A stretch of DNA of 49,328 nucleotides from a virus (taxonomy: Duplodnaviria; Heunggongvirae; Uroviricota; Caudoviricetes): positions 1-49,328 of the IMG/VR virus record IMGVR_UViG_2778261065_000024, one strand, 5' to 3'. Each line of letters starts with the position of its first letter. Positions within the stretch are counted from its first letter, which is position 1. The notes below the pieces were generated by a model that was not told where the DNA came from, did not search any database, and saw only the letters and a program-made list of their open reading frames with translations. This document shows, in pieces, positions 1,534 to 47,969 of this stretch. The position numbers were made by a program, and so were the translations under genes.

Positions 1534-2547
1534 CTACAAATTATAAAGAGGATTTTTAGTCACCGCGTCTTCAAGGTGATCGGGCGAAAAGTGGGCGTAA
1601 ATCATGGTCATTTTTATATCGGCATGACCCAAAATATCACGCAGTACCAGTATGTTTCCGCCGTTCATCATAAAGTGACTGGCGAATGTATGGCGAAGCA
1701 CGTGGGTGCATTGGCCCTCCGGTAGGTCAATACCGGCCCGCTTTACTGCCCGCTCAAAGGCTTTTCTGCATGGCGTGAATAACTTTCTTCTGTTTTTGGG
1801 GAGTTCATCATACAGATCCTGAGATATCGGCACAGTACGGTTTTTCTTGCCTTTTGTTTTTGTATAAGTAATTCGGTATTTCGATATTTGATGGCCCTGC
1901 AGATTTTCGGCTTCACTCCACCGTGCGCCAGTAGCCAGGCATATTTTTGCAATCATTAGTAAGCTAGGGCTTTGAGATTCAGCACATGCCGCCAACAGGC
2001 GCTTGATTTCGTCCGTGGAAAGAAAAGCCAGCTCACCTTCGGCAATTTTGAAGGTCGGAAGTCCTGCCAGCGGGTTTGGTGCTGACCAGTGTCCTAGTTT
2101 TTTTAATGTACCGAACACAGATGATAGATTGCGCTGTTCAAGGTTTACCGTGCGGGGCTTAACGGGCGACATCAGCGTGCCATCTTCATTTCGCACTTCA
2201 CCTTTTAGCCGTGCTTCGCGGTATTTCGTAAAGTCACCGGCAGTCAGCTCTGAAGCGATGGGATCGCCCAGACCATTACAGATAATTCCAAGTTTCGCCA
2301 TGAGTCGCTTGGGGTCTGCGAGTGTTTGACCATACAGGGAATACCACAGCTCAATTAATTCTGATAGGTGTCGCCGATCTTCCTTTTCTCCCAGCCAAGG
2401 TTTCTTGTTTACCTCGTCCATGGTGAAATTCTCAAACGCAATGGCTTCGCCTTTCGTCGCAAATTGTTTGCGTACGCGTTTGCCATCTCGCCCGTTTGGG
2501 TAGCATTCACATAACCACTTTCCGTTCGGCTGTTTTCTGATGGTCAT
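1534..2547 (-). CDS. int: tyrosine integrase, P2/186 family
   Basis: 337 aa; N-terminus MTIRKQPNGKW..GKRVRKQFATKGEA and C-terminal HVLRHTFASHFMMNGGNILVLRDILGH typical of P2-family integrases; sits next to the repressor. Confidence 0.9.
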   Translation of the reverse strand: MTIRKQPNGKWLCECYPNGRDGKRVRKQFATKGEAIAFENFTMDEVNKKPWLGEKEDRRHLSELIELWYSLYGQTLADPKRLMAKLGIICNGLGDPIASELTAGDFTKYREARLKGEVRNEDGTLMSPVKPRTVNLEQRNLSSVFGTLKKLGHWSAPNPLAGLPTFKIAEGELAFLSTDEIKRLLAACAESQSPSLLMIAKICLATGARWSEAENLQGHQISKYRITYTKTKGKKNRTVPISQDLYDELPKNRRKLFTPCRKAFERAVKRAGIDLPEGQCTHVLRHTFASHFMMNGGNILVLRDILGHADIKMTMIYAHFSPDHLEDAVTKNPLYNL

Positions 2548-2548
2548 A

Positions 2549-3181
2549 TCAAAGGCTCTTAATGATTTTCAGTGCGCGGCCTATTACCTCAATGTCATCC
2601 AGTTCGCACTCAAACGATGAATCATCCTGATGCACTACTAATCTGTTTCCCGGGAGTCGTGTCAATTTTACAATGCTTTTTATCCCGTCGATGTCCACTA
2701 ACCACGTACCATTTACTGGTGGTGTTTGGTTGCGATCTATTAAATAAGAATCACCAGAAGTAGTCACCAGCAGCAGGTTGCTTGAGTCTGAGGGGAGTAT
2801 GCTGCTATCAATGATTGCTTTTCCAGCATCGATCAGCAAACCTCCGTTGAGAGTTGCCTTGTCAATTTCAGGAGATACAAGCTCCGAAAGAGGTTTAACT
2901 TTGCTAGAGTTCACGGAATTGATATTTTTTTTAGGGTCAATGTTTGAACCTGGATCGCCCTGTCCGGTAGTTAGCCACAGTAAAGAAACTCCTGTTTCCA
3001 AAGCGCACTGAATCACCCATTCTGCAGGAAAACTATCTCTTAAGTATCTGTTTGCCATAGTGCTTTTTGATGCGCCCAAGTGATCGCAAAGTTGCTGTCT
3101 GGACTTGAAATCATAGGCTGCCATTAGCCTATGGATAGCCTCTCTTCCCCCTGTATTCTCGCCAGCTTTTACTTGTATCAT
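2549..3181 (-). CDS. cI: CI-type immunity repressor (phage 186-like)
   Basis: 210-aa ORF divergent from an Apl-like gene and upstream of int; N-terminal HTH-like region; position and size fit 186 CI; no clear LexA-type cleavage motifs. Confidence 0.65.
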   Translation of the reverse strand: MIQVKAGENTGGREAIHRLMAAYDFKSRQQLCDHLGASKSTMANRYLRDSFPAEWVIQCALETGVSLLWLTTGQGDPGSNIDPKKNINSVNSSKVKPLSELVSPEIDKATLNGGLLIDAGKAIIDSSILPSDSSNLLLVTTSGDSYLIDRNQTPPVNGTWLVDIDGIKSIVKLTRLPGNRLVVHQDDSSFECELDDIEVIGRALKIIKSL

Positions 3182-3581: not shown

Positions 3582-4091
3582 ATGTTTGATTACAAGATTT
3601 CCAAACATCCGCATTTTGATGAAGCCTGTAGAGCTTTTGCACTACGTCACAATATGGCAAAGCTGGCAGAACGTGCAGGAATGAATGTTCAGACACTGCG
3701 AAACAAACTCAATCCAGAGCAACCGCATCAGCTCACCGCACCAGAAATCTGGTTGCTTACCGATCTGACTGAAGATTCAACGTTGGTAGACGGTTTTCTG
3801 GCACAGATTCATTGTCTGCCATGTGTTCCGATTAATGAGGTGGCAAAAGAGAAACTGCCGCATTACGTCATGAGTGCAACTGCAGAGATCGGGCGTGTTG
3901 CTGCAGGTGCGGTATCTGGCGATGTAAAAACCAGTGCAGGTCGTCGTGATGCTATCAGCAGCATTAACTCTGTAACACGACTGATGGCGCTGGCGGCTGT
4001 TTCATTGCAGGCCCGTTTACAGGCTAATCCTGCGATGGCAAGTGCAGTTGATACTGTAACTGGCCTCGGTGCGTCATTCGGTTTGCTGTGA
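3582..4091 (+). CDS. cII: CII-like lysogeny establishment regulator (186-type)
   Basis: 169 aa, the same length as 186 CII, immediately after the apl-like gene; N-terminal HTH-like region (QTLRNKLNPEQP). Confidence 0.65.
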   Translation: MFDYKISKHPHFDEACRAFALRHNMAKLAERAGMNVQTLRNKLNPEQPHQLTAPEIWLLTDLTEDSTLVDGFLAQIHCLPCVPINEVAKEKLPHYVMSATAEIGRVAAGAVSGDVKTSAGRRDAISSINSVTRLMALAAVSLQARLQANPAMASAVDTVTGLGASFGLL

Positions 4092-44691: not shown

Positions 44692-44922
44692 TTAATGGAG
44701 TTTGTTTTGCTGCTGGATGAGCTGTTGAAGCTCGCGCAGATCATCCGCCAGATAGCTGAAAACAGCGGATGAATAGAGGTTTGAAAGTTCGCAGCTACGC
44801 TCATGCAGCATATTGATGTGCATGATTTTAGCGACGCGGAATGCGCGGGAAAGTCTGCGGTTGATTTCAGTCTGGATGTGACGACGCTCCGCGATAGTGC
44901 GGTGCTGTTTGCGGTTTGCCAT
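44692..44922 (-). CDS. hypothetical early protein (76 aa)
   Basis: ORF in the early operon; basic N-terminus. Confidence 0.45.
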   Translation of the reverse strand: MANRKQHRTIAERRHIQTEINRRLSRAFRVAKIMHINMLHERSCELSNLYSSAVFSYLADDLRELQQLIQQQNKLH

Positions 44923-45244
44923 GATATGTGGCCTCTTGTAGTAAGTTGTGAAAACTCACCATCCAGAGCTGCGAAACTGTGGGTGGCGAGACGTACGAGG
45001 TTCGCAGTACCGGCTACAAGAGATCCCGGCCCGACCGAAGTCGGCCCCGTACGCCCCGCCATAATTCTGACGCGAAAAAAACGTGGCAATACAGTACGCA
45101 CAAAAAAACCGCTGGCGCGGTTGTGCGCTCTTGTAGTCAGCAGGCTGCGAAACCCGGCACCCGTTTTATGAGGTGCAGCGGAAATGTAACCTGACTGATT
45201 GCGGCATGGCAAGCGGTTTTTTTGTGTGTGCATGCTCTGGTTTC

Positions 45245-46441: not shown

Positions 46442-46534
46442 TTTTGTATCTCCGTTATTTGCGTGTGCGAATACCTCCGTTAATACGGATGGTTTTCACG
46501 TTTTCTTATTTAATTTGATGTTTTATTTGTATCG

Positions 46535-46648
46535 TTATTCACCAGTGAAAAAACGTTCAATCTTTTTTACTGAATGAATAATTCGCATAATTCCAATGGC
46601 GCAGGCCACCGAAATAATCAGAACAAGCCATGAGATAAATATACTCAT
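46535..46648 (-). CDS. small hydrophobic peptide (37 aa, MSIFISWLVLIISVACAIGIMRIIHSVKKIERFFTGE), not in the ORF track
   Basis: ATG overlaps the TGA of the upstream 80-aa ORF (ATGA coupling); one predicted TM helix then a basic tail; TAA stop at 46535-46537. Confidence 0.45.
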   Translation of the reverse strand: MSIFISWLVLIISVACAIGIMRIIHSVKKIERFFTGE

Positions 46649-46887
46649 GCGATATTCCCCAGCTTATACGGTTCAATATGTTCCCCGCATTCTGCGGCAC
46701 AGATCAGCTCGGAAAGTTCGTTAAGTGCATCCAGATCATCAGCGTAAAAAGCGACGTCATACAAACTCCGGATTGCCCTGGTCAATGAGTCACGGGCTGC
46801 ACGTTCAGCATGAGCGCCTGATGCACTTAAGCGAAAATAAAATCGTTCAAGTGCTTTGTTAATGAGAGTTTTATATTCTTTGCCCAT
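46645..46887 (-). CDS. hypothetical early protein (80 aa)
   Basis: ORF in the early operon. Confidence 0.5.
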   Translation of the reverse strand: MGKEYKTLINKALERFYFRLSASGAHAERAARDSLTRAIRSLYDVAFYADDLDALNELSELICAAECGEHIEPYKLGNIA

Positions 46888-47547: not shown

Positions 47548-47874
47548 TCATGCAGCAAAATTAAGAAAGCCTAATCCCAAATCTTCCGCCAGCTTCTTGG
47601 CTTTCTTAAGCCAGTGATTGCGCCAATCTTTACGCTCAGGAGGAAGCTGTTTCGTTGCGTCATAGACCATTTCGAGCCACTCATTCCAAAGGATGAGAAG
47701 ACGGCGCGAACTCCCTTCCTCGCCTAAAACCTCGCGCTCAGTAGTTAGAGGGATGAGTCGACGCTCTACCAACTTTCTTACGGCTGATTCGGTCTTACCT
47801 GTGCGGCGGGAAAACTCATCGACGGTGATGGGGTCTGGGATCTTAAACAATGCCCTCAATAGTTCTTCATTCAT
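47548..47874 (-). CDS. Cox-like regulator/excisionase candidate (108 aa)
   Basis: ATG at 47874 after AGGGAGA; first gene of the early operon, divergent from the C repressor; call rests on position. Confidence 0.45.
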   Translation of the reverse strand: MNEELLRALFKIPDPITVDEFSRRTGKTESAVRKLVERRLIPLTTEREVLGEEGSSRRLLILWNEWLEMVYDATKQLPPERKDWRNHWLKKAKKLAEDLGLGFLNFAA

Positions 47875-47888
47875 GTGATAATCTCCCT

Positions 47889-47920
47889 GTTTGGGGTATT
47901 TCTTGCGACGGATGCCCCAA
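47889..47920. promoter_or_regulatory. inverted repeat TTTGGGG...CCCCAAA in the C/cox divergent promoter region (operator candidate)
   Basis: 7-bp inverted repeat arms at 47889-47895 and 47914-47920 between the divergent start codons. Confidence 0.3.
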
Positions 47921-47969
47921 ATCAAACTCATTTGTATAAACATTAATACAGACGTTGGAGAATTGCAAC

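Follow-up and report, generated by a model that had tools for sequence, protein, structure and literature searches.

The locus and its coding evidence

The window, that is, the whole stretch of 49,328 nucleotides (nt) of IMG/VR virus record IMGVR_UViG_2778261065_000024, is on sequence grounds a P88-like Escherichia coli prophage (genus Xuanwuvirus, Peduoviridae, P2/186 family), and we describe here a short open reading frame (sORF) in its early operon that is predicted to encode a small membrane peptide. Read from the sequence, the sORF occupies positions 46535 to 46648 of the minus strand and consists of an ATG-started frame of 37 codons closed by TAA, with the product MSIFISWLVLIISVACAIGIMRIIHSVKKIERFFTGE. 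A first-pass annotation of this DNA had given the same coordinates and exactly this peptide; the strand, which it left unstated, is added here as a correction. That annotation had also recognised that the start codon overlaps the stop codon of the upstream gene as ATGA (46645-46648, minus strand): the TGA of that gene (46645-46647) and the ATG of the sORF (46646-46648) have three bases in common. The upstream gene (46645-46887, minus strand) encodes an 80-amino-acid (80-aa) protein of the family DUF4754 (PF15946; Pfam E=2.8e-54), and a Shine-Dalgarno-like (SD-like) motif, GGGGAA (46655-46660, minus strand; -12 to -7), lies 6 nt 5' of the sORF ATG within the last DUF4754 codons.

The length of such a frame is by itself uninformative, as 83 open reading frames (ORFs) of at least 25 aa are found in 5.3 kb. 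Chance ORFs of this size being common, the sORF could be a non-functional accident of the T-rich spacer, which would owe its conservation to an RNA element, a recombination linker or recent ancestry. It is conservation, not ORF length, that separates the sORF from chance, and our verdict on coding is drawn from it. Conservation across related prophages, which the first-pass annotation had proposed as a check, extends to 96 of 96 related loci, all of which have the ORF, the ATGA overlap and an SD-like motif, and the synonymous/non-synonymous pattern also fits a coding sequence. Recent ancestry would find some support in these counts: most fetched loci are closely related, and in the 80 loci from viral contigs the DUF4754 protein is 100% identical throughout, so that the real diversity was obtained from contigs encoding distant homologues of the peptide.

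Among the 65 distinct sequences of the close set, the pooled Nei-Gojobori ratio of the proportions of non-synonymous and synonymous differences (pN/pS) was 0.22 in the sORF frame, and the two remaining sense frames gave 1.05 and 1.48; the antisense frame with common wobble positions mirrored the sense frame, as expected (0.285). The in-frame variants comprised 16 synonymous and 16 non-synonymous changes and no stop, where a synonymous fraction of 0.27 would be expected (binomial p=0.004). No synonymous excess was seen in the spacer 3' of the sORF or in the other frames, and stop variants do occur there. Between distant pairs the synonymous sites have diverged almost to saturation (pS 0.44-0.81 versus pN 0.19-0.31), yet the frame remains open, the start stays fixed on ATGA, and 20-25 of the 37 residues of the peptide are identical (54-68%). 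This exceeds the conservation of the Pfam-recognised upstream gene, whose product retains 28-32 of 80 residues (35-40%) in the same distant prophages. The amino-acid changes keep hydrophobicity, the helix substitutions in related loci being mostly conservative swaps among I, V, L, M, F and A. We conclude that the peptide is almost certainly under purifying selection as a protein and that the sORF is very probably a real coding gene.

Two features at the 3' end of the sORF could still be read in favour of an accident, namely the conserved RNA hairpin and mosaic boundary just 3' of it and the tolerance of its C-terminal tail to frameshifts. The frameshifts concern two homopolymer runs, both on the minus strand. 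In the T6 run of codons 32-34 (46548-46553), T5 alleles, visible as a gap column in the T run, yield 45-aa peptides ending ...ERFSLVNNDTNKTSN; this longer form is present in 7/96 loci, and in the fetched loci that have it, it stems from the T5 allele. The A6 run of codons 27-29 (46563-46568), likewise read from the sequence, would upon loss of one A give 45-aa alleles ending ...SVKRLNAFSL..., and from the peptide sequences of clusters P0002 and P0003 we infer such a one-base loss as the origin of their 45-aa tail. Shifts in either run enter the same alternative frame and produce 45-aa peptides with an unrelated polar tail. Either the far C-terminus is less constrained than the rest of the peptide, or the prophages that carry these alleles are decaying. 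Set against the synonymous excess, the lack of in-frame stop variants and the persistence of the peptide in distant prophages, a non-coding origin appears very improbable to us and is strongly disfavoured.

Annotation and distribution

The first-pass annotation had called the ORF unannotated and missed by the six-frame track. The second statement holds for that track, the reason being only the length cut-off applied there; the first does not, as the gene is present in RefSeq, in phages P88 and vB_EcoM-569R5 and in UniRef entries. The RefSeq E. coli entry is WP_000021656.1 ('hypothetical protein'), and the EDL933-derived O157:H7 strain WS4202 carries the sORF as WP_000021655.1, with the same label. 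It is listed in phage P88 as gp07 (YP_009113050.1, 'membrane protein'), in vB_EcoM-569R5 as 'putative membrane protein', and related UniRef members bear the name 'Prophage membrane protein'. The gp06-gp07 pair of P88 (DUF4754 and peptide) matches the pair described here in gene, ATGA overlap and operon position, with no sequence difference in the peptide. By its sequence, the gene is a member of the already annotated but undescribed P88 gp07 peptide family.

In tblastn searches the peptide was 100% identical to P88 gp07 and to a homologue in Citrobacter phage PhiSM. P88 is reported to have been induced from strain K88 (PMC5285337), and PhiSM is released spontaneously and forms plaques (PMC6456863); the gene is thus retained in phages isolated as active viruses. 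More than 1000 contigs of E. coli, Salmonella and Shigella carry the exact peptide, which falls in a cluster of 183 members, and the 461-bp region was found in 1386 of 5426 complete E. coli genomes, about one quarter. A HMMER search of 1.84 billion cluster representatives recovered nine related clusters of 22-59 aa, the shortest being a 22-aa fragment and the family otherwise compact at 37-59 aa; they include forms of 41 aa (54-68% identical) and one of 59 aa (47% identical), which have the N-terminal helix in common. No match to the peptide was obtained in Pfam, PHROGs, NCBIfam, PADLOC or the PDB sequences, and in the literature we found no mention of the peptide, its accessions or DUF4754. 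A TatA match of the 41-aa form (E=0.11) was rejected as an artefact of the hydrophobic helix.

The predicted peptide and its DUF4754 partner

The peptide is dominated by one hydrophobic segment, the best 19-residue Kyte-Doolittle (KD) window (residues 3-21) scoring 2.68. The two residues preceding the helix are uncharged, while four K/R and two D/E follow it. The tail RIIHSVKKIERFF (residues 22-34) has a hydrophobic moment of 2.12, compared with 0.19 for the transmembrane (TM) segment, and an isoelectric point (pI) of about 10; R22 is the predicted anchor at the TM end. AlphaFold models residues 2-34 as one continuous helix with a predicted local distance difference test (pLDDT) score of 92. 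Hydropathy, charge and helix model thus agree with the earlier description of one TM helix followed by a basic tail, and we regard a single-pass inner-membrane peptide as a very probable product. In its architecture, it would be a small single-pass membrane protein of the kind known from phages and bacteria. Because the N-terminus lacks charge and four K/R follow the helix, the positive-inside rule predicts an N-out/C-in topology, with the basic amphipathic tail on the cytoplasmic face.

Conservation within the family is concentrated at particular positions of this helix and tail. M1, S6, W7, L10 and I24 are invariant; F4, I11, A17, G19, I20, I23 and K28 are nearly so, and position 22 is kept as R, K or Q. 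The tail pattern I-E-x-x-F-T-G-(E/D) is preserved in both the 37- and the 41-aa forms. Small residues at positions 13 (S/A), 17 and 19 fall on one face of the helix and suggest a helix-packing surface.

The other half of the locus is predicted to be soluble. AlphaFold2 models the DUF4754 protein as all-helical (pLDDT 90), with helices at 4-48 and 52-66. Its N-terminal half is basic (pI 10.5) and its C-terminal half acidic (pI 4.05), the latter being complementary in charge to the basic tail of the peptide. Wherever the context of a peptide homologue was read, the homologue directly followed an 80-aa DUF4754-type gene with a 4-nt overlap, in variable gene surroundings, and in the phage collection both genes occur in the same 14 records. 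The DUF4754 family itself is narrow and centred on Escherichia. By this comparison the two genes form an inseparable module, of which the peptide is, judging from the distant prophages, the better conserved half. DUF4754 proteins of 103-128 aa were considered as natural fusions with the peptide and proved to be frameshifted or mis-started calls, none of them an in-frame fusion.

The layout of this module points to co-translation. The ATGA junction is kept even in loci whose DUF4754 partner is only 35-40% identical. In all 96 loci a G-rich SD-like motif lies at -17 to -5 (GGGGA, GGGAA, GAGGAG, GAGGTGG, AAGGGG or CAGGAGG), and it is maintained though the C-terminal residues of DUF4754 that it encodes vary (KLGNIA, LIEELA, LIEGET, FTEVAA). 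The first-pass annotation had described the sORF as translationally coupled; the arrangement on which this was based is confirmed throughout, and coupling, which we deduce from that arrangement, is probable. That the two products also work as functional partners is a somewhat less secure proposition, which we nevertheless favour.

Operon context and competing functions

In a genome that is 100% identical, the prophage adjoins pheA/pheL. Its plus strand encodes the integrase (48306 onward) and a C-type repressor, and the minus strand carries, in order, a cox-like gene, a DUF4761 gene, a 92-aa gene, DUF4754, the sORF, a 136-aa gene, a 67-aa gene, a gene for a MarR-like winged helix-turn-helix protein, an Ead/Ea22-like gene, a derepression-protein gene, a 121-aa gene and the gene of replication endonuclease A. 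The sORF hence lies between the cox-like gene and A, in the cox-side operon of the P2 family, and its earlier placement in an early operon is correct. The gene next to the module on its 3' side encodes 136 aa here and 67 aa in P88.

This position bears on the nature of the peptide, for which the first-pass annotation had considered host-killing, division-inhibiting and membrane-depolarising roles. A toxin or division inhibitor is plausible by analogy, on positional grounds. A specifically membrane-damaging peptide, which would resemble type I toxins or holins, oligomerise, dissipate the proton-motive force and kill or arrest the host, seems improbable. In size, in its one very hydrophobic helix and in having a charged tail at the C-terminus, the peptide does recall Hok, TisB, Ldr or holin-type peptides, and like the type I toxins (Hok, TisB, Ldr, BsrG/TxpA/CD) the sORF product is a small hydrophobic single-TM peptide on a mobile element. 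Prophage-borne type I membrane toxins are, moreover, well documented (PMC12648545). Pore-lining peptides, however, are usually amphipathic, and this helix shows no polar face (moment 0.19); non-specific pore formation appears less likely.

The genetic arrangement departs further from that of a toxin. Unlike type I toxin genes, the sORF is joined to the upstream gene by ATGA within a long operon and lacks a separate promoter or leader: promoter-like sites in the region number 2 versus 3.5 expected, no more than chance, and none of them places an antisense RNA over the sORF. Rfam gives no antitoxin or small-RNA match at the sORF (E<=10), only sub-threshold chance matches, and PADLOC and NCBIfam contain no matching toxin family. 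A type I toxin-antitoxin layout was accordingly rejected, as the promoter/terminator scan and the Rfam search both show no antisense RNA. In contrast to holins and antiholins, the gene is not part of a late lysis cassette beside an endolysin, but is situated between cox and the replication gene A, and a depolarisation of the host early in the lytic cycle would presumably work against phage replication.

Superinfection exclusion also seems improbable; here the peptide and DUF4754 would together modify a component of the inner membrane that incoming phage DNA uses, and so protect the infected cell from a second infection. Many exclusion proteins, such as T4 Imm and HK97 gp15, are small inner-membrane proteins. 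Early expression would suit an exclusion that operates in the lytic phase, as with T4 imm, and the restriction of the family to Escherichia-type hosts would fit a host- or phage-specific interaction. The sORF is, however, part of a repressor-controlled early operon and not a lysogenic moron, so that a lysogen would not be expected to benefit, and we found no independent promoter. Nothing ties DUF4754 to exclusion. No defence model matched the peptide, and the weak PADLOC match of DUF4754 (E=0.012) is taken as chance.

Proposed role in early lytic growth

The explanation that we prefer, and regard as somewhat more likely than not, is that the sORF is a genuine coding gene for a translationally coupled membrane peptide that acts with DUF4754 on a host process. 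Ribosomes finishing DUF4754 would re-initiate on the sORF and so deliver both products together and in a fixed ratio. The TM helix could then pack against a larger inner-membrane protein or complex, and the peptide would either tether or display cytoplasmic DUF4754 at the membrane, or the two would act together. As a result, a host membrane-associated process would be altered at an early stage of the lytic cycle. By analogy with Fil of phage 186 and Gp11 of phage PhiNM1, the first candidates for this process are cell division and envelope synthesis; that the peptide is an inhibitor of such a process is a tentative idea and less likely than not.

Phage 186 provides the closest positional parallel. 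Its annotated genes fil ('overexpression blocks cell division') and dhr ('inhibits host DNA replication') are an overlapping pair of small genes after cII in the early lytic operon, followed by the terminator tR1. The module of the window, too, is an overlapping small pair in the corresponding place of the operon with a structured RNA behind it, and the analogy is one of position only. Fil (75 aa) and Dhr (66 aa) lack a TM-grade segment (maximum KD 1.26 and 0.49), and fil and dhr overlap by 14 nt and not as ATGA. When the peptide was compared with Fil and Dhr by BLASTP (word size 2, E<=100), matches of only six and three residues appeared; the best Fil match, IRIVHF versus MRIIHS of the peptide (six residues, E=0.29 in a two-sequence search), was discarded as not significant. 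The tblastn searches with the peptide and with DUF4754 returned no 186, P2 or other classical phage record.

Small membrane proteins with established roles offer a parallel in mechanism. AcrZ, MgrB, MgtS, CydX and Blr are small membrane-protein regulators that are presumed to pack their TM helix on a larger membrane protein. The peptide resembles the AcrZ/MgrB/MgtS type in being shorter than 50 aa with a single TM helix and a short charged cytoplasmic tail, and its conserved S/A13, A17 and G19, along with the invariant W7, form a putative binding surface for a larger membrane protein. It differs from AcrZ, MgrB, MgtS, CydX and Blr in that it has no sequence similarity to them, is phage-encoded and shows a coupling layout with a soluble partner. 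Bacterial regulators of this class have been reviewed (PMC12648545). In the Staphylococcus phage PhiNM1, the early small membrane protein Gp11 blocks division via MurG and DivIC (PMC11237401). Like Gp11, the peptide would be an early small phage membrane protein that binds host membrane-associated proteins, and our favoured mechanism is formulated by analogy with it. Gp11, however, acts in a host of another phylum, no homology to it was detected and no DUF4754-like partner has been reported for it; its toxicity and targets are experimental, whereas the case made here is sequence-based.

Several observations weigh against the role that we propose. The family scans and BLAST searches linked the peptide by homology to neither Fil nor Dhr nor any other well-described small membrane protein. 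A Foldseek search of the DUF4754 model against PDB and BFVD returned nothing below E=0.5, so that no target can be named. In the close set, selection is weaker on the peptide (pN/pS 0.22) than on DUF4754 (0.054). Two loci with 41-aa alleles, L091 and L092, have DNA-identical sORFs and DUF4754 genes that differ at a pN of 0.42, which places a recombination breakpoint exactly at the ATGA junction (locus position 4001). The pairing is consequently not allele-specific and the halves of the module can reassort, so that a tight co-evolving complex becomes less credible. The tail, finally, is the proposed DUF4754-binding part of the peptide, and it is replaced in 7/96 loci and in clusters P0002 and P0003; it may be dispensable, unless these prophages are decaying.

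A bolder version of the membrane-partner model, which we consider doubtful, is that Escherichia P2-family phages possess in DUF4754 and the peptide a host-takeover module of two components that has so far gone unrecognised. By recruiting DUF4754 to the inner membrane or activating it there, the peptide would shut down a host process such as division, envelope synthesis or membrane-associated replication; the pair would be a non-homologous replacement of 186 fil-dhr with a new target. A true host-takeover device of this kind would reveal a new weak point of the E. coli inner membrane or divisome that phages exploit, and it would offer a tractable case in which a small membrane protein cooperates with a soluble one. 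The module is present in about one quarter of complete E. coli genomes, including the O157:H7 EDL933 type, and neither gene has a function or a paper; the peptide is also without a family model. Should the pair be without phenotype, the sORF would be one more correctly annotated hypothetical gene. A practical lesson is to consult public annotation before an ORF too short for a six-frame length cut-off is called unannotated.

Neighbouring features and occurrences

A conserved RNA hairpin (46467-46499, minus strand; core 46476-46489) follows the module after a spacer of about 44 nt from the sORF stop in 37-aa alleles. Its core reads AUCCGU-AUUA-ACGGAGG in the window and AUCCGY-loop-RCGGAGG across loci. 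Nearly all loci, related and distant alike, contain it, and it travels with the module. Across 13 distinct sequences the 5-bp core stem is paired in 65/65 cells; one pair shows a compensatory change (CG:9, UA:4), and two G.U changes are valid only on the operon strand. The spacer fold has a z-score of -3.67. Rfam contains no match to the hairpin. Homology to P88-type phages ends at about 46461, just past it, at a mosaic boundary, and its position recalls that of tR1 after fil-dhr in phage 186. The hairpin could be a processing or antitermination site that sets the expression of the variable downstream genes. A function of the sORF as a regulatory leader for the hairpin was considered and is unlikely, as its stop codon is about 44 nt away and selection acts on the amino acids.

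Two unusual occurrences were met in the survey of the module. On the 226-kb contig NZ_JBQPOM010000071.1, labelled Vagococcus sp. WN89Y, a Gram-positive, the peptide is identical and the DUF4754 protein matches at 98% identity, most likely through contamination or mislabelling of the assembly. Two of 1516 matching places were counted on plasmids, and a candidate plasmid case is the 129-kb record NZ_CP183151.1 of E. coli strain 455, which matches at 99.9% identity at positions 2428-3129. This may be a P88-like element on a plasmid or part of a mis-assembled replicon.

Elsewhere in the operon, the cox-like gene (47548-47943, minus strand) has a longest ORF of 131 aa, and RefSeq uses a later start that gives 108 aa. 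Its match to Phage_Cox of Pfam (24.6 bits) falls just below the gathering score of 27.5, and the gene probably encodes a divergent Cox/Apl-type regulator. Just 5' of the derepression-protein gene (44692-44922), in a stretch of about 320 nt that is blank in RefSeq, Rfam models identify isrK (45102-45176, minus strand; 66.7 bits) and a C4 antisense RNA (44979-45066, minus strand; 81.1 bits). The layout of these two RNAs resembles the C4-antirepressor control of the P1/P7 type, here inside an early operon of the P2 family.

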